Assembly: GCA_034226945.1 (NCBI GenBank)
Contig: CP120461.1
Coordinates: forward strand, 248,001-312,000
DNA length: 64,000 nucleotides
Source: Picochlorum sp. SENEW3
Taxonomy: Eukaryota
Direction: 5' to 3'
In this document: piece by piece, positions 2,232 to 60,233 of the stretch
Numbering within the stretch: position 1 is the stretch's first letter
Layout: every line of letters starts with the position of its first letter
Translations under genes and position numbers: made by a program
Notes under the pieces: model-generated
Told to the model about the DNA's origin: nothing
What the model saw: the letters and a program-made list of their open reading frames with translations, nothing else
Databases searched by the model: none

Positions 2232-3648
2232 ATGCTCAGCCAGACGGTGCGACGGTTTGGTTCTACAAAGAGGATCTCACAGCCTCTGCTAGCGGCCTCC
2301 TGGGGATCAATCGACGGTGGTATTCTCACCCAGTCTCGCGGGTTTGCGAAGAAGACTGTGTCTGCTGTGGCGGATTCAACAGAGAGCGATGGATCGTCCA
2401 TGGATCCTTCAACTGAAGCACGGGTGTGTCACTCTTCCACATGTGTTTGATTCTTGTTGTTGCCATGAATGTGTTTCTTCAGACTATACTGTGTCACCTA
2501 TATGATGTAGGCAAAGGCATTGGATCAGGCATTGAAAGAGATTAATAATCGATTTGGAAAGAATAGTGTTATGAAATTGGGTGCAAACATGTTTGGTGAA
2601 GTGTACGTGTGCATTCTTGTGTGTCATGCATGGAGCACATTGTCGGTGTATACGCGATACCCATAATAATATCATCTATGATGACATTTGCAGGCAAAGC
2701 ACACCGAGTGGTGCATTGACGTTGGACCTTGCTCTGGGGGGAGGATACCCCAAGGGCCGTGTCATTGAAATCTATGGCCCAGAGAGCGCAGGAAAGACAA
2801 CGTTGGCACTTCACGCGCTCGCAGAAGTACAAAAACAAGGCGGTAATGTTGCTTTGATTGACGCAGAACACGCTTTCGACCCAGTCTTTGCCAAGCGCCT
2901 TGGGGTTGATATTGATTCCTTGTACCTGTGTCAGCCAGATTCTGGCGAAATGGCTCTTGAAGTAGCCGATCAGCTCATTCGAAGCTCAGCCATGGATATG
3001 ATTGCAGTAGACTCTGTCGCCGCTCTTGTCCCTCGAGCAGAAATCGAAGGCGAAATTGGCCAGCTCCAAGTCGGTGCACAGGCACGCTTGATGAGCGCAG
3101 CGCTCAGAAAGATTGCTGGAAACGCATCACGACATAACTGTTCAATCATCTTCCTCAACCAACTCCGCCAAAAAGTCGGAGTTATTTATGGAAACCCAGA
3201 AGTCACATCCGGAGGACAAGCACTCAAATATTACTCCTCTGTCAGGATGGAAGTACGAATCAAGGAGAGAATCGCCGGGTCAGATGGACAGATTGGCATC
3301 CGAGTAAAATCTAAAATCACAAAGAACAAGGTTGCACCACCGTACAAATTGGCAGAATTCGATGTCCTGTTTGGGTCGGGGATCTCTGTCAACGGATGCC
3401 TGTTGGATGCTGCTGAATCTGTTGGAGTGATTGTCCGCAGAGGATCATACTACTTTTACGGAGACGAGCGACTCGGACAAGGGCGAGATAAAACACTCGA
3501 AACGCTCAAAACAAACACGACACTTCGCGACACCATTGACTCGAAAACACGACAGGCACTTATTGGAACTGATGTGAATGACATGTATGATGAAGACGTC
3601 CCAGTCTCTGAGGAAGATGCAGAGGGTGCGGAACGCACTGCTGTGTAA
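2232..3648 (+). CDS. recA: Organellar (probably mitochondrial) RecA recombinase; exons 2232-2423, 2511-2602, 2694-3648
   Basis: Walker A GPESAGKTT, IDAEHA, VDSVAALVP, IFLNQLR, GGQALKYYSS and KNKVAPP. Exon 2 encodes the RecA N-terminal helix AKALDQALKEINNRFGKNSVMKLG. Both GT-AG introns keep the frame. Arg/Ser-rich presequence MLSQTVRRF...SRGFAKK. Confidence 0.95.
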
Positions 3649-7406: not shown

Positions 7407-8046
7407 CAGTCTCGATGGGACGAGCCCTTGAAGGTCTGTCAGTGACAGAATCTTTTTTACACTGGTGCCACGGGGTGGAGAGACACAGAAATATTTAACT
7501 CAAGTTCTACGTAATATTTAAGATATTGGAGTATAAAGAACATATTCGTACGTTACTTGCGTTGTCGTGTTGTTTGTGATGTGAACAACGGTTCGCGGGA
7601 ATCTTTTTTCTCGTACCTCCGTGGTATCATATTCGGGCACGGGTTGGTCGGGAATGCATATGAAATCAAGTATTTATTACACATGTACTACTGTGGAAGG
7701 GAGGGAGGGTAACGGAAGTGTGCCATGTGGTGACCTACCTCGGGTCATACTTGACAGCGAAGGTGACAGCCCGAGGACTATTTTGGGCGCCCTTGAAATT
7801 GAATTCCGTCATGATGCCCCCATGTCCCCATATAGTTTGATAGTCTTCCTATAGGAAATAATGACCTATTCTTATTATATTGTGTTGCTTACAGAAGACG
7901 CGTGGTAGGGTTGATCGAGAAAGTACTACTACTACCATTTCAGAGGTGTCCCCTTGCTGACTGTGCATGCTTGTTGCGACATAGAAGCGGGAAGGACGTT
8001 TTTTTTTTCTTGCTGAAACGAATACTATCGTAACTGAGTATTGACT

Positions 8047-10314
8047 ATGGTGCTGCCTGTGGCTGTGCCCAAGCATGCGGCGCACAGTATGCTTCAGTCA
8101 ACTGGGAGTCAGCAAATGCCTACTGTTGTAGGGTCTCCGACAAACCCAGTTGGATACTCTGGACAGAATGGTTCGGGTTCAGTAAAATGCCATTCTGTTG
8201 CATCGGGAAACATCAATGGAACATCAGCTGGATCGTTTCGGTCGTCATTGTCGAGATCTTCGTCGACGAAAAGCAGAGGAGGATCCTTCAAGTGGAACAT
8301 GTCTGGGGGTCGGGGAGAGTATGGCAGTCGCGTGACCGAGTCGTTCGTGAAGATTGAAGGTTTTCGGTATAATGGAAAAGAATCTTCTGAGAGCAACAAG
8401 AATGATAATGTAGCATCTGGCAAGATTCAGCGGGATCCCAGTGGGAACTCGCTGTTGACACGAGAACTCTCATTGGAGAACCTGCACATCAAGGAGACGC
8501 GCATCTCGTCAAGTTGGTCTGCTGCATCCACCGCTGGTTCTTCTCCAATGTACAGTAATAACAGCCAAAGTACTGCGTTCTCACTTCAGTTGCCCACCCT
8601 TGAGCCATCACCAGCCCCTGGATTGAGGAACACACCCCTTCTGTCCATGTCTCCATCATCTGTGCCAGAGTCAATGCTGTTGGAATTGCAGAAGAAGCAC
8701 TCTGTGTTCAACGAGCCATTGGTTGCACGGGCATTTAATATTGCTCGCTTGGCCCATGATGGGCAGGTGAATGTTGGAGCAAGGCCAGGTCCAACCTTTG
8801 AAAAGTGCGTGGCAGCTTCATTGATATTGGCAGACCTTGGAGCAGATGAGGCAGCAGTCTCGTCGGCCCTCTTGCATGACTGTCTTGATGAAAGCATGCT
8901 GGATGAAGCACAGTTGAGATCCATGCTTGGTTCTGAAAGAACTGTCAAGGTTGTGAAGAGTGTATCTCACCTTTCGTATCTTTCTGAACGGTTTGAGGAA
9001 ACCATGCCAATGGCCATGACGCTTTGTGCCCCCCATGAAACCTCCCAAGAGTGCCTTGACTTGATTGCATTGATGTTGGCTCACGCGTCTCCGCGATCCC
9101 TGCTTGTTCGACTGGGGGTTGCCTTGGCTGAGATGAAAATCTGTGCATCTGCTGTGAAACAGTCGGATACCATGGTTCACGATCCATACGTGAGGAAGGT
9201 GGCTCACGAGGCAATGAACATATGGGCCCCTCTTGCAAATCGATTGGGCGTATGGTCTATCAAATCCCAATTGGAAGACTTGAGTTTCAGTTGTCTGCTG
9301 CCAGAGGAGCACACACACCTTCAGCAGCGACTCTCCAAAGCGCAAGAGCCAACTGCCCTGGTTGGTTTAATGGATAATTTGAGAGGAGCACTGCAAAAGA
9401 ATGATGTCGAGTACCTTGATCTGTCTGGAAGACCAAAGCACCTTTGGGGGGTGTGGTGCAAAATGCAGAAGAAGGGGTATTCTGCAGAGAGAGTTCAGGA
9501 TGTCAGAGGCCTCCGTGTTATTGTCCATTCCAGAGAAGATTGTTACAAGACTTTGAGGGCTGTGGAAAAATCTTGGAAGGTTGTTGGATCGTCGAAGAAT
9601 TACATCAAAGACCCAAAGAAGAATGGATATCAATCACTGCATGTGATTGCGGACCCAGGAGATGGTCATCTTGTGGAAATCCAGATTAGGACAGATAAGA
9701 TGCATTATCTTGCAGAATACGGAGCAGATGCTTCTCATTGGAAGTACAAAGAACTGGCATTTGAAGACAAGGATTCTTCGCCATGCGATGTTGCCAAGGA
9801 AGCCAATTGGGCCAAGTTCATCACGCAAAAACATGTATCAATGGACAAAAAGTACAGGCCATCTGGGTCTCCTTCCGAGGATAAGAGTTTGGAAATGATC
9901 ATGGCTGGTTTGCATGAGAAAACAAACAGCGAGAAAGAAGAGAAAGATGGCAAGAAAGGCCGTTCTTTCCAAGAATATATTGAGGAAAGTGGCCAGGCGG
10001 TGGCTCCTCCTGGAGACAGGCGTGTCATGGTGGCAGTGATTGCTGCTGGCGTCTTCAAAGTGGAAGCCCTTCCTCACGGCACCACCATTGGCCAAGTCTT
10101 GGACAGCCAAGCAAGGATGAATGCCTCGACACCCGGATCAACGAGGAAGATGACTGTCAACAGAAGAGAAGATCAGGACGCTGCCACACTTGTTCGGACT
10201 GGAGATGTCCTGGAGATTCACACAGAACCTTACGTCGCACCCATCTTTGTACAAAACAACTCTTTACCCTTGGGTGGACTAGCGCAGAAATTAAAGCAAT
10301 CACCAATGCCGTGA
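8047..10314 (+). CDS. RSH: RelA/SpoT homologue, (p)ppGpp synthetase with degenerate HD domain and a TGS-like C-terminus
   Basis: WAPLANRLGVWSIKSQLEDLSF, GRPKHL, DVRGLRVI, PKKNGYQSLH, VEIQIRT, AEYGADASHWKYK and ALLHD. Confidence 0.92.
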   Translation: MVLPVAVPKHAAHSMLQSTGSQQMPTVVGSPTNPVGYSGQNGSGSVKCHSVASGNINGTSAGSFRSSLSRSSSTKSRGGSFKWNMSGGRGEYGSRVTESFVKIEGFRYNGKESSESNKNDNVASGKIQRDPSGNSLLTRELSLENLHIKETRISSSWSAASTAGSSPMYSNNSQSTAFSLQLPTLEPSPAPGLRNTPLLSMSPSSVPESMLLELQKKHSVFNEPLVARAFNIARLAHDGQVNVGARPGPTFEKCVAASLILADLGADEAAVSSALLHDCLDESMLDEAQLRSMLGSERTVKVVKSVSHLSYLSERFEETMPMAMTLCAPHETSQECLDLIALMLAHASPRSLLVRLGVALAEMKICASAVKQSDTMVHDPYVRKVAHEAMNIWAPLANRLGVWSIKSQLEDLSFSCLLPEEHTHLQQRLSKAQEPTALVGLMDNLRGALQKNDVEYLDLSGRPKHLWGVWCKMQKKGYSAERVQDVRGLRVIVHSREDCYKTLRAVEKSWKVVGSSKNYIKDPKKNGYQSLHVIADPGDGHLVEIQIRTDKMHYLAEYGADASHWKYKELAFEDKDSSPCDVAKEANWAKFITQKHVSMDKKYRPSGSPSEDKSLEMIMAGLHEKTNSEKEEKDGKKGRSFQEYIEESGQAVAPPGDRRVMVAVIAAGVFKVEALPHGTTIGQVLDSQARMNASTPGSTRKMTVNRREDQDAATLVRTGDVLEIHTEPYVAPIFVQNNSLPLGGLAQKLKQSPMP

Positions 10315-28797: not shown

Positions 28798-29292
28798 GTA
28801 GTGGTGTAAGAGTACGACCTACAAAAAGAAAGAAATGTGTGTTTGTTTATATAGCAACACCATGTTATTTTTTTGAACATAGACGCGTCATCCCAGGCAT
28901 GCGAAAAGACACCATCATCTCAGATCTCTTTATCGTCATTGGCGTGGCTATGAACACATGGTACGCACACAGCACGGGTTTCAACAGCAATGTGTGACAT
29001 CCAACATGCAGTGCGTCGTCCCAGAGCATGCCATTGCCATCTGATAAGATCAAGTTGAACCATCACGGATGATTGTCTTCATCATGGGACTGCTGGTGGT
29101 GAGAATTTTAAAGTGACCAAGAGTGCCCAGAGTCAGTTTTCATTTCAATGATACATATATGGATCAAGAAGAAGATGCGCACCTCTTTCTCATTGCTGGT
29201 ATACCCAGCCTATTGAGCCTTGAGATTGATGTAATCAATCTACATTCAAATACATACATCACAAATCGCTACTACTACTACTGCTGCTATTA

Positions 29293-29759
29293 TTATCGTT
29301 TCTGTCGCGTTCGTTTCGGTCTACTTGTATTATTAGTATTGTCAGCACCTCCTCCCTTGGGTTTTTGTGTCTGCTTTCTTGTCTTCTTCTTGTCACCGCC
29401 TGCGTTCTTCGTCGTCTTCTTCTTCTGTATCGAAGAAGCAGCAGATTTCATCGACGAACGAGATGTATGTCGCGTCCTCGTCGTCAAAGGTGGCTGCATT
29501 GTTTCTTCCTGAGAAGACAATTGGGAGAGCATTCGTCGCAGCACGTCCTCCTCCACCTGCAAACGTTGCAGCTGTCGCCGTGCAATACGCTGCACCTTCT
29601 CCAATGTCTCTTCCTCAATATCTAAAGCATTTCTGATATCCTATAGAAACATTTATATCATCGGATGAAATACGTGGGAAAGAGTTTTCCTTTTTGTTTT
29701 GAAAAAAGACGATGGAAAAAACAAACCTTTATCCGAAATCCCCCCAACTTCAAGGCCAT
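29293..29759 (-). CDS. SNAPC5/SNAP19-like small nuclear protein; exons 29759-29727, 29640-29293
   Basis: Spliced protein MALKLGGFRIKDIRNALDIEEETLEKVQRIARRQLQRLQVEEDVLRRML... matches the EEETL-x9-QLxRLxVEExxLxxM pattern of animal SNAPC5 as recalled. Basic NLS-like tail. Confidence 0.6.
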
Positions 29760-29948
29760 CCTAGTTAGCCATAAATAGTGCCTTAAAAATACGGTACTTT
29801 TTTGAGTATTATTGATGTCTTGAATAATCTGTCTGAAGTAGAATCCATTCTGTTTGTTGATGGGTGGAACTGCGTAATAAGAACATTAAATATCCTGATG
29901 AGTTGGTGGATAATTCGACCTTGTCTTGGCCCGAAATCTCATTCAACA

Positions 29949-32081
29949 ATGGTTAGTCCCGTTGTAGGTAGTGCAATAGTGCCACGGTGGCCGTTCAGGC
30001 TACAGAGCAGACAGATATGTGGTTGTAGACAGCTGTCTTGTCATGGCCAGAGGTTGAATGACACGAGAACGCCATTCTACGTGCCCCATCTGCCCAGGCA
30101 GCTGGGTATAAGTGCCAGAGCATCTGCATCTTCTTCCACTGGATCGAGCGGAAGGGCGAGCGTGGCCATTTTATGGTTCAAACACGACTTTCGTTTGGAT
30201 GACCATCCAGGGGTACACCAGGTGATGCATTCTGATTCGATTGATGTGGTGGTACCAGTGTATCTGTTTGATCCTCAGATATACGCAAGAGTGGTCAATT
30301 GCAAGGATATGGCAAGGGTTTTGGAAGGGGCAGTGGGATCTCTTGCTGCAAAATTAAAGAAGCAGGGTGGTGCAGATCTTGTGGTTGCATCTGGTGCATG
30401 GGAGGAGACGATGCCGAGAATAGTCGATGATGTATGTTCATTGTATGGTACAACGAAAAATAATGTACGTATAGTGACGGAGGAGGAGTGCGAGGTGGGA
30501 TGGGTTGATGGGTTGGAGAGAGTACAGAGTGCTTTACAGCAGGAAACTCGTGTTGACACGTGGACTGCACTGATGTATCATGATTACACAGAAGAATCGT
30601 TCCCTGAGTGGCTTGTGGCTCGTGGGAGCATGACAGAGACGTATGGGGATGTTGTTTTGTCCAAGGAGAAGGCACATACGTCTTTGGATGATGGTTCCAG
30701 GCTGGATGCACACCATATATGGGCAGAGGTTGGCAGAGTTCGCCAGGAACAATACCTCCACACCTCGAGGACGGATGATGACATCTCGTATGACCCGTTT
30801 GTTGTAGATGTGAGCTCGGATGAAGACACAGCGAGACAGTGTATTGATGAGTATATTGGATTCAGACGCCCTTTTTCTCCAACAGTTGATGCTGCAATTC
30901 GGCGGTATGATACACAAGCAACCATTGATGGATGCTTCCCTGCTATATTCCTGACTGCATTGCAGCTCGGCGTTCTATCACGCAGAAGAATACACAGCGA
31001 TGCTGTCGAATTTATATCCACGTCTTGTGAGGACGCGTTGGAGATGCCTATTGGCGGGTCTCCAGTGGCATGGGCTGGGTGGTTGCTATCATCACATGGA
31101 GGCGCTTGTGCTCGGCTCGAGAAGGCGAGAAAAGCCAGGGCTGCTCTTGTCGCCACAGAACTAGGTGATTTTCATCTAGGTCAAGCGTACATGAGGCATG
31201 GAAAAGAGGTATTTGGGTCGAAATTGCACTATTGGCGATGGCGTGGCATCCTGACTGACTATCTCTACAGTCCACCCACATCAGAACCCATCCCCAACGC
31301 ACCAGCGATCGTCCTCGTCCATGGTTTTGGTGCGTTTGGAGAACACTGGCGCAGAAATATCAAAGAATTAGCGGGCAAAGGATTCCATGTCTATGCTCCC
31401 ACCATACCCGGGTATGGTCGCAGCGAGAAGCACAGCGTCCAATATGGCCAGACCCTGTGGAGCACATTTCTTGCTGATTTCATCTCTGAGATTGTCACAA
31501 CGAGGGTGGTGATTGCAGGAAATTCCATTGGTGGCTATATCTCAGCATCTGTAGCCGCTGATTACCCCGATATGGTGGCGGGACTCGTGTTGCTCAATTC
31601 CGCAGGCAAGATTGATCAGTCTTTCACTGCAGAGGCAGCTGCAGACGTCGTACGAAAGCCACCACCATCATTCATCGTCGATGGAATCAGTCGATTACTG
31701 TTTACATTCTTAGAAGGAGATATAGAAAACCAGCTGAAGCGACTCTATCCGGTGAGACCAGAAAATGCAGACGAATGGCTGAGCCAGCAGATTCGAAGAG
31801 CCAGCCGAGATCCACAAGCTTTGGGCGTGTTTCGGAGCGTCTTTTTCCTCCCTCCCCCCAGACCTCTCAACTATCTCGTATCCTCCTTATTCAAAGGACC
31901 TACTCTGGTCCTTCAAGGAGCTCTGGATCCCCTGAATGATGCAAAGACAAGAGCTCACGACATTGTCGAGTCGTGTCCAAATGCAAACTGTATATTGCTG
32001 GATGCAGGGCATTGTCCGCACGATGAAGTCCCTGAACAAGTAAACAATGCCATAGCCTCCTTTACTGTAGATGTAATATAG
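29949..32081 (+). CDS. Plastid-targeted fusion of a photolyase N-terminal domain and an alpha/beta hydrolase
   Basis: ILWFKHDFRLDDHP (photolyase antenna domain), then LVHGFGAF, nucleophile GNSIGG, QGALDP and AGHCPHDEVPE. Transit-peptide-like N-terminus. Confidence 0.85.
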   Translation: MVSPVVGSAIVPRWPFRLQSRQICGCRQLSCHGQRLNDTRTPFYVPHLPRQLGISARASASSSTGSSGRASVAILWFKHDFRLDDHPGVHQVMHSDSIDVVVPVYLFDPQIYARVVNCKDMARVLEGAVGSLAAKLKKQGGADLVVASGAWEETMPRIVDDVCSLYGTTKNNVRIVTEEECEVGWVDGLERVQSALQQETRVDTWTALMYHDYTEESFPEWLVARGSMTETYGDVVLSKEKAHTSLDDGSRLDAHHIWAEVGRVRQEQYLHTSRTDDDISYDPFVVDVSSDEDTARQCIDEYIGFRRPFSPTVDAAIRRYDTQATIDGCFPAIFLTALQLGVLSRRRIHSDAVEFISTSCEDALEMPIGGSPVAWAGWLLSSHGGACARLEKARKARAALVATELGDFHLGQAYMRHGKEVFGSKLHYWRWRGILTDYLYSPPTSEPIPNAPAIVLVHGFGAFGEHWRRNIKELAGKGFHVYAPTIPGYGRSEKHSVQYGQTLWSTFLADFISEIVTTRVVIAGNSIGGYISASVAADYPDMVAGLVLLNSAGKIDQSFTAEAAADVVRKPPPSFIVDGISRLLFTFLEGDIENQLKRLYPVRPENADEWLSQQIRRASRDPQALGVFRSVFFLPPPRPLNYLVSSLFKGPTLVLQGALDPLNDAKTRAHDIVESCPNANCILLDAGHCPHDEVPEQVNNAIASFTVDVI

Positions 32082-32146: not shown

Positions 32147-33529
32147 ATGTTTGCTAGGATTCGGGAGAGTCTTGCGTTGCGAATCAAGCAGATTCAGGGA
32201 GTAGATGATGTTCAATTACGGTACGTAGATCATTAATCTATGGGTTTCAAACGCATCGCCCGCATATATTCAGGAGAAACTATGCACAGCGGTTGTAGAG
32301 CAACCTAGACTTGATATATAACAGTGGGCATGGTTTTTTTTTACTGCAGGAAGCTTCCAGCGACTAGTGCATACCTGGTAGCACCTGTGCTACGAGCATT
32401 GGCCTCTCTGTATCAGACGACAGAATCGACTCGACAGTTTCTGTATAGAGCTGGTATTTTCTCTGCTCATTCATTACCAGCTGCTGTTATTTCTGTGGGA
32501 AATCTTACTTCAGCGAGTGGCAAGACACCGTTCGTACAGCATTTAGCAAAACATTATTGGCAGTTCCATGGTATTCCATCGCTGATCATACAGTTAGGGG
32601 AGGGTAAAGTGGATGAGGCAATTATGATGGAGAATGATTTTGAAGGGACGCCCATTACAGTGGTTGATACTGCAAACCCAGCAGATATTAAAGAGGTTTT
32701 GATGGAGCATCCATCCCTTCGTCTTGTATTACTTGATAATGGACTACAGCATTTACCACTCATGCGTGACTTGGATATTGTGACATTAAATGCATACTCA
32801 CCATTAGGGAATAACCACTTGAGACCCAGAGGGTCTCTTAGGGAGGCGCCAAGGCCAGCACTGGGTCGAGCAGATGCAGTTGTAATGCATCATGTCGATA
32901 TAGCAGGGCCGGAGCGAGTGAAGCATTCCATGAGACTCATTGAACCTCTGGTGCCAAATCACACGCTCCGCGTCCAAACAGCCATGATGCCCACGATGCT
33001 GCGGTTTATAGTACCAGTGAAACGAACACTGGATATGTCTGATTCATCGGATCTTGGTGGACTCATAGGACTATCAACATTGGAAGATTCAGCTGTAGTA
33101 TTTTTGACTGGGGTAGGTTCACCTCAGACTGTGGAAGAGCATGCAAAGAAGCTTGGTGCGCTGCATGTAGAAGGGTGTGGCTGCCATGAAGACCATCATT
33201 ATTTTACTAGTGAGGAAGTGCACGATGCCGTGGATCGGGTCAAAGCACTCATGAGGAACCCATCCTACAGCCATGTATGCATCATGTTGACAGAGAAGGA
33301 TTTCTGGAGACAGAGGCACTTTTGGAGCTCTGTTTTCATCCGTTATAGCGATGAGATATGGGATGGTGGTGATCAAGATCTGAAAAAGACCAAATGGGGT
33401 GCATACATTCTACGAAGCGAACTGCAGCTCAAGTCCCATGATGGAAGGTTTTCCTCAGAATCAGCCATGTGGAGCGCCATGTTACGCCTTGCCACAGATC
33501 ATTTCAGAGGACGGCGGTATAATATGTGA
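32147..33529 (+). CDS. lpxK: Tetraacyldisaccharide (lipid A) 4'-kinase homologue, divergent; exons 32147-32220, 32350-33529
   Basis: VISVGNLT...GKTP, LDNGLQH..LMRDLDIV, PRGSLRE, LGRAD, DHHYF and TEKD. Phase-2 intron GTACGT...CTGCAG. Confidence 0.85.
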
Positions 33530-54875: not shown

Positions 54876-56273
54876 TCATTTCGCCTCGGCCTTTAGCCCC
54901 CCACATATCAGCCCCTCGAGCACCTCAATAATGTTATCCACAGTCGGGCGCTCATCTGGATCCAGCAACCAACACCGATGCAGCAATTCAGCTAGTGCTG
55001 CAGGCATGTCCTCTGGAATAGGCAATCGCTCTCCCTCGCAGATGGCATAGAGGATCTGGGCAGGCCTAGCGTCGCCCCATGCTAGCTCTCCAGCCCAAAC
55101 CTCCCAGATCAACACGCCCAAGGAAAAGATGTCGGACGCTTTGCTGGTGTAGCCATCGCTCATGATCTCTGGGGAAGCATACGCAATGGTGCTCATGCCT
55201 TCTGTCTTTGCCATGTGGGGTGCATTGATGGATACACGCCCAAAATCAATCAAGCTAGCTGTCATATTCGAAGCCCTTGGGGTTTGATCTTCAGCATCAT
55301 ATACATAATGAAGCATTGCATTGTTGCTGGACAGATCCCGATGAATTATATGGTTCTCATGCATGTACTGAATACCATGGGCAATATTCAGGGCAATGTT
55401 TTTGAGCCGGAGGAGTTTGGCATCTTTGTCTGTATCCTGGAAATCACCTCGTTCCAGAGCATCGCCCAGTGTGCCTCCATTGCAAAACTCCTGTATAAGA
55501 AGAAACTTGAGATTTTTGGGATCTTCTTGCCGTTCTGCTTCTAGTAATCGAAATGTCTGTTCTACTGCTTCCCTCGAATCTGCCAAGTAGTCCAAGGATA
55601 GAATCTCCGCGGCACCATCCTCCGGAGCTGCCACTGACGCTAGATCGACTGTCTTTATTGAATCTTTGTCAATGCACAAGCTGCACTTTGCAATCCTCTG
55701 AGACCCAGACAATGTGCTGCCTTGACGTCTATACACGCGAACCCTGAAGGTTTGGGCTACATTTTCATGGTTCATTCCCATGCCCGCCTGGCTTTCCAAT
55801 TTGACGTTTTTCAACAATTTCTCGCTATCCCCATTCAAAGAGATCAATTTGACGGCTACATCCCCATAGAGATCGTGGTGCCCATGAAAGACCCTTCCAT
55901 ATGAGCCAGACCCAACCATTTTCCCAATAATCAACTCACTCGGTGCAAGGCCACTCGTATAAATATCTCCCATCATTTGAGGTCCCTGGAGTATTTTCGA
56001 CAGATAGTTGGGGTTGCTAGATCGAGCAGCAGGAGCTACTACAACTGAATCTTGGACTCCAGCGTCTTCAGAGTCATAATCTGTGCCACCGTTCTCAAAA
56101 GGAGAGGCAAATATCGATGAAGAATCATGCTCCATTTCTATTGCATCTGTCAGTAGACTGTTGCTGCGCACAGCGACAGGGTGCTTCGATAACACACTGC
56201 AGCTTACGCAGCCGTTGCTCCCAGAAGCAAACCCAAGTTTGTCGATGCCGTTAGCCAATGTCAGTGTATTCAT
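54876..56273 (-). CDS. TKL/MAP3K-like Ser/Thr protein kinase, copy 1
   Basis: GSGSYG, VAVK, HRDLSSNN, DFG, YASPE, SDIFSLG and CW..DPDERP. Long subdomain IV-V insert, intronless. Confidence 0.92.
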   Translation of the reverse strand: MNTLTLANGIDKLGFASGSNGCVSCSVLSKHPVAVRSNSLLTDAIEMEHDSSSIFASPFENGGTDYDSEDAGVQDSVVVAPAARSSNPNYLSKILQGPQMMGDIYTSGLAPSELIIGKMVGSGSYGRVFHGHHDLYGDVAVKLISLNGDSEKLLKNVKLESQAGMGMNHENVAQTFRVRVYRRQGSTLSGSQRIAKCSLCIDKDSIKTVDLASVAAPEDGAAEILSLDYLADSREAVEQTFRLLEAERQEDPKNLKFLLIQEFCNGGTLGDALERGDFQDTDKDAKLLRLKNIALNIAHGIQYMHENHIIHRDLSSNNAMLHYVYDAEDQTPRASNMTASLIDFGRVSINAPHMAKTEGMSTIAYASPEIMSDGYTSKASDIFSLGVLIWEVWAGELAWGDARPAQILYAICEGERLPIPEDMPAALAELLHRCWLLDPDERPTVDNIIEVLEGLICGGLKAEAK

Positions 56274-57056
56274 TCGTTCGTTTATACTTATATTCGTCAC
56301 TAATTTATACAATTATTATATGTATTTATCAATTCCAGGAGGACTCACGCTGACGCATGACTACCGCGGTACTTTCTGGAATGGATGGTTTGGCGAGAGA
56401 GTCCTGTGAAATGTTTCATTCATGGGAACCACCTGTCGACGAGGCGCGCTTGTACCAAATCTTTGGACGAGATATCTCCTTTGGATCCATAGAGATTTCC
56501 CTGTGAAAATCCCTATGGGGCTATGGCCTACCGCGGGGTTGCCATATCGGCATATAATCCACACAATTGGCATGATAATCGACATATTTCGGTTAGGATG
56601 AGATGATTCCATCCTAACAATTCATCTGTACTGTACTCATGTTTGCCATTGGGTTGACAGAAAGAAGTGTGTCGTTACTTGTATTAACACTCGCGAATAC
56701 GCGTAGCAAGGAAAAGGAGTGTATGTTGCCATTGTTGGATCTAGAAATCATAGGAATGCGACCATCTGCCTAGGTGATGCCAATGTCCAAGATGAGCATG
56801 GTCATGGTTTGAATTTCGATCAGTGACTGCATTGGATGAAGATTCCCGTATACCCACTGGAAACACGTGTATCTTTATGAATCGGGCTCAGATTTGGCCA
56901 GCGGTGGATTATATGGTATCCCCTGGTGCCAGAATATCTTTGGCTCGGAAAAAAATCCCAAGCGTGGTGGTGTAGGGATACCGCACCGCCATCATCATGA
57001 CTCATGGAAATACGAGCAAACGTACGTCTCCTTTCCACTGATAGAAATTTTCAACT

Positions 57057-58059: not shown

Positions 58060-59454
58060 TCATTTCACCTCAGCCTCTAGGCCCCCAGATATCAGCCCCT
58101 CGAGCACCTCAATAATGTTATCCACAGTCGGGCGCTCATCTGGATCCAGCAACCAACACCGATGCAGCAATTCAGCTAGTGCTGCAGGCATGTCCTCTGG
58201 AATAGGCAACCGCTTCCCCCCGCAGATGGCATAGAGGATCTGGGCAGGCCTAGCATCGCCCCATGCTCGCTCTCCTGTCCAAACCTCCCAGAGCAGCACG
58301 CCCAAGGAAAAGATGTCGGACGCTTTGCTGGCGTGGCCATCTGTCATGAGCTCTGGGGAAGTATACGCAATGGTGCTCATGCCTTCTGTCTTTGCCATGT
58401 GGGGTGCGTTGATGGATGCACGCCCAAAATCAATCAGCTTGGCTATCATATTCGAGGCCCTTGGACTTTGATCTTCAGAATCATGTAAATAATGAAGCAT
58501 TGCATTGTTGCTGGACAGATCCCGATGAATTATATGGTTCTCATGCATGTACTGAATACCATGGGCAACATTCAGGGCAATGTTTTCGAGCCGGAGGAGT
58601 TTGGCATCTTTGTCTGTATCCTGGAAATCACCTCGTTCCAGAGCATCGCCCAGTGTGCCTCCATTGCAAAACTCCTGTATAAGAAGAAACTTGAGATTTT
58701 TGGGATCCTCTTGCCGTTCTGCTTCTAGTAATCGAAATGTCTGTTCTACTGCTTCCCTCGAATCTGCCAAGTAGTCCAAGGATAGAATCTCCGCGGCACC
58801 ATCCTCCGGAGCTGCCACTGACGCTAGATCGACTGTCTTTATTGAATCTTTGTCAATGCACAAGCTGCACTTTGCAATCCTCTGAGACCCAGACAATGTG
58901 CTGCCTTGACGTCTATACACGCGAACCCTGAAGGTTTGGGCTACATTCTCATGGTTCATTCCCATGCCCGCCTGAATTTCCAGCTTTACATCGTTCAACG
59001 ATTTCTGGCTATCCCCATTCAAAGAGATCAATTTGACGGCTACATCCCCATAGAGATCGTGGTGCCCATGAAAGACCCTTCCATATGAGCCAGACCCAAC
59101 CATTTTCCCAATAATCAACTCACTCGGTGCAAGGCCACTCGCATGAATGTCTCCCATCATTTCAGATCCCTCTAGTACTTTTGACAAATAATTGAGGCTG
59201 CTGGATCGAGCAGCAGGAGTTGCCACAACTGGCTCATGGACTCCAGCGTCGTCGGAGTCATAATCTGTGCCACAATTCTCAAAAGGAGAGATAAATATAG
59301 ATGAAGAATCATGCTCCATTTCTATTGCATCTGTCAGTAGACTGTTGCAGCGCACAGCGACAGGGTGCTTCGATGACACACTGCTTACGCTGGCGTTGCT
59401 CCCAGAAGCAAACCCACCTTGGTCGATGCCCTTTGCCAATTTCAATTGAGGCAT
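58060..59454 (-). CDS. TKL/MAP3K-like Ser/Thr protein kinase, copy 2
   Basis: Same motifs as copy 1; tandem paralogue. Confidence 0.92.
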   Translation of the reverse strand: MPQLKLAKGIDQGGFASGSNASVSSVSSKHPVAVRCNSLLTDAIEMEHDSSSIFISPFENCGTDYDSDDAGVHEPVVATPAARSSSLNYLSKVLEGSEMMGDIHASGLAPSELIIGKMVGSGSYGRVFHGHHDLYGDVAVKLISLNGDSQKSLNDVKLEIQAGMGMNHENVAQTFRVRVYRRQGSTLSGSQRIAKCSLCIDKDSIKTVDLASVAAPEDGAAEILSLDYLADSREAVEQTFRLLEAERQEDPKNLKFLLIQEFCNGGTLGDALERGDFQDTDKDAKLLRLENIALNVAHGIQYMHENHIIHRDLSSNNAMLHYLHDSEDQSPRASNMIAKLIDFGRASINAPHMAKTEGMSTIAYTSPELMTDGHASKASDIFSLGVLLWEVWTGERAWGDARPAQILYAICGGKRLPIPEDMPAALAELLHRCWLLDPDERPTVDNIIEVLEGLISGGLEAEVK

Positions 59455-60233
59455 AGATCAAAAGTTATATTCGTCACTAATTTATACAATTATTATATGT
59501 ATTTATCAATTCCAGGAGGTTTCACGCTGACGCATGACTACCGCGGTACTTTCTGGAATGGATGGTTTGGCGAGAGAGTCCTGTGAAATGTTTCATTCAT
59601 GGGAACCACCTGTCGACGAGGCGCGCTTGTACCAAATCTTTGGACGAGATATCTCCTTTGGATCCATAGAGATTTCCCTGTGAAAATCCCTATGGGGCTA
59701 TGGCCTACCGCGGGGTTGCCATATCGGCATATAATCCACACAATTGGCATGATAATCGACATATTTCGGTTAGGATGAGATGATTCCATCCTAACAATTC
59801 ATCTGTACTGTACTCATGTTTGCCATTGGGTTGACAGAAAGAAGTGTGTCGTTACTTGTATTAACACTCGCGAATACGCGTAGCAAGGAAAAGGAGTGTA
59901 TGTTGCCATTGTTGGATCTAGAAATCATAGGAATGCGACCATCTGCCTAGGTGATGCCAATGTCCAAGATGAGCATGGTCATGGTTTGAATTTCGATCAG
60001 TGACTGCATTGGATGAAGATTCCCGTATACCCACTGGAAACACGTGTATCTTTATGAATCGGGCTCAGATTTGGCCAGCGGTGGATTATATGGTATCCCC
60101 TGGTGCCAGAATATCTTTGGCTCGGAAAAAAATCCCAAGCGTGGTGGTGTCGGGATACCGCACCGCCATCATCATGACTCATGGAAATACGAGCAAACGT
60201 ACGTCTCCTTTCCACTGATAGAAATTTTCAACT

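Follow-up and report, generated by a model that had tools for sequence, protein, structure and literature searches.

A small, spliced nuclear gene with a very short first exon encodes a conserved protein that is probably a member of the SNAPC5 (SNAP19) family

The stretch of DNA analyzed here (64,000 nucleotides, hereafter "the window") is a compact, intron-poor nuclear region carrying organelle-type genes. On its minus strand, an 11-codon exon, an 86-nt GT..AG intron and a 115-codon exon together form a gene for a 126-aa protein (29759-29293). The coding part of exon 1 (29727..29759, minus strand) consists of an ATG and 10 further codons, translated as MALKLGGFRIK, and the start ATG at 29759 has an A at -3 and a G at +4. 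The intron (29641..29726, minus strand, phase 0; GTTTGTTT...TTCTATAG) opens with GTTTGT from 29726 and closes with CTATAG up to 29641, as read on the minus strand. The coding part of exon 2 (29293..29640, minus strand), recognized as an open reading frame (ORF) whose translation is referred to as P0001, opens DIRNALDIEEETLEKVQRIARRQLQRLQVEEDVLRRML... and comprises 115 codons (29640-29296) followed by a TAA stop codon (29295-29293). Because the first methionine encoded in exon 2, residue 37, falls within a conserved helix, the full protein needs exon 1. This two-exon model had been put forward in the initial annotation of the locus, and its coordinates, intron and peptide all proved correct, both by translation and by the exon junction seen in sequencing contigs.

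The transcribed flanks can be delimited from contigs of a relative, obtained from two sequencing runs (X16 and X18, see below). On the 3' side, these contigs run from 29639 down to 29181, so that the 3' untranslated part covers 29181..29292 (minus strand) to the limit of the contigs. The 5' untranslated part is minimal (29760..29777, minus strand): adapter letters set in where the contigs end, at 29771 in X18 and at 29777 in X16. Right at the limit of these 5' ends lies an upstream ORF of three codons (ATG GCT AAC TAG; 29770-29772, minus strand), 13 nt 5' of the start codon and in another frame. Beyond it, a short intergenic stretch (29778..29970) is common to this gene and a divergent neighbor, and constitutes a putative bidirectional promoter. 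The neighboring ORF (29787-32078, plus strand) specifies a fusion between a DNA-photolyase N-terminal domain and an alpha/beta hydrolase (DNA_photolyase, Abhydrolase). Its X16 and X18 contigs start at 29971-29974, right after the adapter and downstream of the in-frame ATGs at 29898 and 29949, and the next in-frame methionine after these two is located inside the photolyase domain.

Evidence on splicing came from four sequencing runs compared with positions 28900-30100. X16 and X18 carry one organism code and belong to one study; their kind is given as "RNA?", which is a guess. Each of them provided one contig, of 515-567 letters, covering 29181-29639 and then 29726 to 29771 or 29777, i.e., joining 29639/29640 to 29726/29727. 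The 86 skipped bases end in CT..AC on the plus strand, that is, GT..AG on the minus strand, and the intron is exactly absent from both contigs. Both contigs terminate in sequencing adapters, and neighboring genes lie on separate contigs, as cDNA would show. The source organism is a relative rather than the strain itself, with 21 changed and 9 gap letters over 459 bases. Four indels were listed across the four runs within the coding region or immediately behind it, and each has a length divisible by three (6, 3, 3, and 3 letters). It is formally possible that the organism of X16 and X18 carries an intron-less DNA allele instead of splicing this intron out: no contig of the DNA-like runs X9 and X17 covers 29556-29842, and these runs hence offer no DNA control. 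Spliced or intron-less alike, the junction skipping the 86 bases yields a continuous reading frame in that organism.

Next, we looked for relatives of the protein across sequence databases. A phmmer search over 1.84 billion representatives returned four small relatives (E 8e-10 to 5e-4, at E ≤ 1e-3), along with a 1669-aa bacterial protein (E 8.7e-4) that we took as spurious, i.e., as a composition artefact. When residues 1-45 alone served as the query, only the 2 closest relatives were retrieved. A profile word search yielded 10 sequences, all from one clade, and word-indexed searches added further sequences of the same clade. Finally, a metagenome scan with 384 pattern matches led to a single locus, L001, on a metagenome contig. 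The protein encoded there is a relative with roughly 50% identity, and the gene has retained both the short first exon and the location of the intron: after a 12-codon exon 1 (MSTTKLGDVKIR) comes a 107-nt intron (GTATGT..GCAG) that interrupts the coding sequence at the same codon boundary, and then exon 2. Through phmmer, the profile word search and the metagenome scan, the gene was found to be kept in other algae-like lineages, which supports the initial annotation.

Just downstream of the gene, a DPM1-like gene is convergent in L001 and in the window alike. Both X16 contigs that extend as far as 29173-29181 of the window stop there, and their loose ends (16 and 26 letters) do not resemble the window sequence. 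The 26-letter end resembles a stretch just after the DPM1-like stop codon, near 28800-28816, and the organism of X16 may carry an inserted or rearranged segment between the 3' ends of these two convergent genes.

Substitution patterns point to constraint on the protein. Over 41 core codons compared between the window and L001, 29 of 41 residues are identical, with pN at 0.205 and pS at 0.777, the latter saturated; this contrast is a clear sign of purifying selection at the protein level. When 11 sequences are aligned, 11 helix columns are invariant (R26, L27, V29, E30, E31, V33, L34, R36, M37, L38, and Q40), a further 9 helix columns are nearly so, and the tail cannot be aligned. Against a protein-coding gene, one could hold that the ORF is short, that its tail is of low complexity, and that none of the runs containing the stretch is recorded as RNA, in which case it would have arisen by assembly error or would be an ORF present by chance in a transcript that is non-coding or untranslated. 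This is very improbable given the exact GT..AG junction that contigs from two runs share, the low non-synonymous and saturated synonymous change in the core, the in-frame length of every listed indel, the retention of exon 1 and of the intron position at about 50% protein identity, and the residues left invariant among all 11 aligned sequences. What is shown here is a genuine gene, spliced, subject to purifying selection and kept across several related lineages.

The initial annotation had further suggested that the short first exon conceals the gene, and the database records fit this account well. All database relatives shown are without exon 1, and several are prokaryote-style calls that run through the intron to its acceptor, which is what concealment by a short first exon predicts. 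P0013, which belongs to the cluster of P0004, has one copy whose source calls it a "response regulator of citrate/malate metabolism"; this name is wrong, since the sequence is an intron read-through ORF from a prokaryotic gene finder. More generally, very short first exons hide small genes from gene callers, as illustrated here by the fact that every database relative was found in its exon-1-less form.

The protein divides into two contrasting parts downstream of its leader. AlphaFold2, run on the family alignment, predicted a single helix over exon-2 residues 2-47, followed by a disordered tail. Mean pLDDT values for the first four 10-residue blocks of the helix are 81, 93, 95, and 93, as against 47-67 in the tail. 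The conserved amphipathic helix (exon-2 residues 1-47; 29500..29640, minus strand) is acidic, with a pI of 4.8, and it includes all the invariant columns. The disordered Ser/Thr/Lys/Arg-rich tail (exon-2 residues 48-115; 29296..29499, minus strand) contains 21 K + R vs 2 D + E, for a pI of 12.0, bearing out the earlier description of it as basic rather than acidic. K + R exceeds D + E in the tails of 17 of 17 sequences, i.e., the window protein and 16 relatives, several of which are near-duplicates, and the tail sequence itself is not conserved. In composition, no other ORF of the window approaches the product of this gene.

We then compared the exon-2 peptide, taken alone, with the Pfam families. 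As the initial annotation had led us to expect, the best match to P0001 was the SNAPC5 family PF15497 (E 7.7e-5), at 23.5 bits for a gathering cut-off of 23.6 bits; the second-best family reached E 0.012. The match spans residues 6-73, and after allowing for the 438 window ORFs of at least 60 aa its E-value is near 0.03. Within alignment A1, PF15497 matched 6 of 6 members (best E 9.2e-6), and any other family matched at most 2 of 6. Among 8 further sequences, PF15497 was the best match for 6, at 14.6-24.0 bits (weakest E 0.046): P0013, at 24.0 bits, lies above the cut-off, and the other relatives in this set lie at 14.6-21.9 bits. The 2 sequences without a PF15497 match are 56-57-residue fragments that start inside the helix. 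Overall, 12 of the 14 scanned relatives had PF15497 as their best Pfam match, and one of these exceeded the cut-off; the 14 sequences represent about seven lineages rather than independent cases. Matches start at profile positions 4-8, at the N-terminal end of a small protein, as in SNAPC5, and P0003 carries a precomputed PF15497.12 label.

We consider the protein to be probably a SNAPC5 (SNAP19)-family subunit, an assignment drawn from sequence comparison that rests on a Pfam profile at its threshold, the profile itself having been widened by iteration. Specifically, the match at the PF15497 cut-off is an observation, and from there we infer family membership, partners and function. The composition bias of the helix toward E, R, Q, and L can inflate scores, as seen from the 1669-aa bacterial protein pulled in by the same query, and the connection in Pfam may depend on plant sequences brought in by iteration. 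We know of no experimental test of the membership of these plant sequences in PF15497. Alternatively, the gene may encode a small nuclear protein restricted to its lineage, with a coiled coil and a basic tail but unrelated to SNAPc, for which the SNAPC5 match would be a chance likeness between helices rich in E, R, Q, and L. Such a protein could be a chromatin, nucleolar or RNA-binding adaptor, pairing with itself or with another partner. We regard this alternative as less likely, though well possible. A score just short of the cut-off, with relatives going down to 14.6 bits, is consistent with it, as is the outcome of the database searches, in which neither phmmer over the 1.84 billion representatives, nor the profile word search, nor the search with residues 1-45 provided a bridge to plant or animal proteins. 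However, PF15497 is the sole family common to the relatives (12 of 14), other weak matches varying from protein to protein, and the match is co-linear with the N-terminus in a protein of the right size.

Direct comparison with human SNAPC5 bears on both the SNAPC5 assignment and the coiled-coil alternative. When P0001 was searched against the PDB (177,635 sequences), human SNAPC5 (7zwc_d) was the sole match at E ≤ 10, with an E-value of 1.1. The HMMER alignment to residues 8-48 of 7zwc_d is gap-free, with 17 of 41 positions identical, and the human sequence and ungapped alignment given in the initial annotation were accurate over this span. Motifs EEETL and RL.VEE are common to both proteins in this 41-residue alignment, and the human chain has the same residue at 7 of the 11 positions that are invariant in the algal family, which argues against a mere coiled-coil likeness. 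With profiles A1 and A2 as queries, human SNAPC5 ranked first in the PDB (E 0.11 and 0.18), almost tied with an unrelated pilus protein (E 0.15 and 0.2), and it was absent at E ≤ 10 for each of three other relatives searched singly (P0013, P0005, and the L001 protein; 0 of 3). Both the near tie and these three misses are compatible with a generic coiled coil. The proposed resemblance to the human protein itself is at noise level and falls short of what the initial annotation claimed. Relative to the SNAPC5 family PF15497, the algal score is at the cut-off rather than clearly above it.

In overall architecture, the algal protein resembles human SNAPC5 (SNAP19) in being small, with a single long N-terminal helix of ~50 residues (predicted by AlphaFold2 in a protein of 126 aa, and spanning residues 1-51 of the human protein according to PMC9758055). 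Unlike in human SNAPC5, the algal helix is preceded by an 11-residue leader from a separate exon. The tails also differ: the algal tail is strongly basic, whereas the printed part of the human tail has acidic residues and none that are basic, a difference more readily expected from the coiled-coil alternative.

Candidate counterparts in land plants were found among ESM Atlas clusters, compared through language-model features. The nearest clusters were Streptophyta hypothetical proteins of 57-152 aa, and 11% and 28% of the members of the two nearest carry PF15497. Scores for these clusters were 0.80-0.81, to be read as leads, a third of shuffled proteins reaching the same values, which is in keeping with the coiled-coil alternative. 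These land-plant PF15497 proteins are small, like the algal protein, and the two were compared by cluster scores rather than by alignment. Our literature search found no experimental link between land-plant PF15497 proteins and SNAPc.

The SNAPC5 assignment has to be weighed against current descriptions of SNAPc, the complex that activates small nuclear RNA (snRNA) genes and of which SNAPC5 is a little-studied fifth subunit. In one account, SNAPc of Arabidopsis, Drosophila, and C. elegans comprises three subunits, and SNAP19 is called "non-conserved" (PMC9652321); another gives only three core subunits for plant SNAPc (PMC10533338). The premise of the initial annotation, that reviews credit plants with a three-subunit SNAPc, is accurate. 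Snapc5 is listed among the genes common to honey bee and vertebrates (PMC2656531), and, in favor of the assignment, SNAPc-type USE promoters exist in green algae (PMC8287931). Residues 1-51 of SNAPC5 supply one helix of "wing-2" in the human Pol II snRNA pre-initiation complex; the other helices of this four-helix bundle, which contacts the TFIIB core, come from SNAPC1 (162-234, two helices) and SNAPC4 (81-125, one helix) (PMC9758055). The same part, termed "rod module" in PMC9652321, is required there for stability and not for DNA binding, and human SNAPC5 is described as not needed for basal transcription in vitro.

By analogy with the human complex, we propose that the product of this two-exon nuclear gene, with its 11-residue leader, ~47-residue helix, and ~68-residue basic disordered tail, would pack its helix against two SNAPC1 helices and one N-terminal SNAPC4 helix. 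The resulting four-helix "wing-2" or "rod" module would stabilize SNAPc on the upstream sequence element of snRNA genes and touch TFIIB, and the basic tail might serve in nuclear import and/or unspecific DNA contact. The presumed pathway, in which the upstream/proximal sequence element of snRNA genes is recognized, is the same as for three-subunit SNAPc, i.e., the SNAPC1/3/4 homologues of Arabidopsis, Drosophila, and trypanosomes. However, SNAPc in these organisms is described without a SNAPC5-like subunit (PMC9652321, PMC10533338, PMC9758055), and the algal gene would add a fourth. Within the 64-kb window, a search of the 24 ORFs of at least 250 aa for SNAPc domains found none, and an Rfam scan of positions 1-64000 gave no family at gathering score, hence no snRNA gene in the window.

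Whether such a subunit can be called overlooked depends on where one looks. A human Pol III preprint surveyed SNAPc1-5 across eukaryotes and iterated the Pfam SNAPc19 family to find remote homologues (bioRxiv 10.1101/2020.06.29.177642). Land-plant clusters already carry PF15497, so the description in the initial annotation is only partly apt: it holds for reviews, which still give three subunits, and less so for databases, in which the family has already been widened. Our literature search found no paper describing a plant or algal SNAPC5, and a figure or table of the preprint survey may already show one. The work of Thiedig et al. 2021 reportedly deals with the three Arabidopsis subunits. At the database level the idea of a plant or algal SNAPC5 is already present; as a claim put to the test, it is not.

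Should the protein prove to be a true SNAPC5, three subunits would be an incomplete description of plant and algal SNAPc, and the wing-2 module would be ancient; algal and plant SNAPc would then also have the TFIIB-contacting wing-2/rod bundle, here with a basic tail. That SNAPC5 is an old fourth SNAPc subunit, predating the split between green plants and animals rather than added in animals, is a proposal we put forward tentatively, as a little short of an even chance. A compact alga with a 126-aa candidate would make a simple test system. The gain is limited by the prior widening of the Pfam family and by the in vitro dispensability of the human protein, as reported in PMC9652321.

The taxonomic setting was assessed from the window itself. 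TGTAA is the chlorophyte poly(A) signal. Of 24 stop codons in the window, 7 are followed by it within 25 nt and 11 within 200 nt, whereas 15% of random 200-nt stretches contain it; AATAAA comes after 1 of the 24, and the 3' untranslated regions are very short. The organelle-type proteins have Arg/Ser/Val-rich leaders without a hydrophobic, signal-peptide-like start, and on this ground we rejected a diatom or other alga with a secondary plastid. The label "green-algal" used in the initial annotation is thus plausible, with both the poly(A) pattern and the leaders fitting a chlorophyte, and this support is soft.

Several other genes of the window also deserve mention. Bacterial-type RecA (2575-3645, plus strand), RelA/SpoT (8038-10311, plus strand), and LpxK (32315-33526, plus strand) genes sit in this nuclear context, and their products are presumably organelle-targeted; the photolyase-domain/hydrolase fusion is likewise counted among the organelle-type genes of the window; for the RecA-like protein, the Atlas clusters returned were bacterial only. 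Two protein-kinase ORFs (54879-56312 and 58063-59457, both on the minus strand) contain an identical 47-residue stretch, and this pair looks like a recent tandem duplication.
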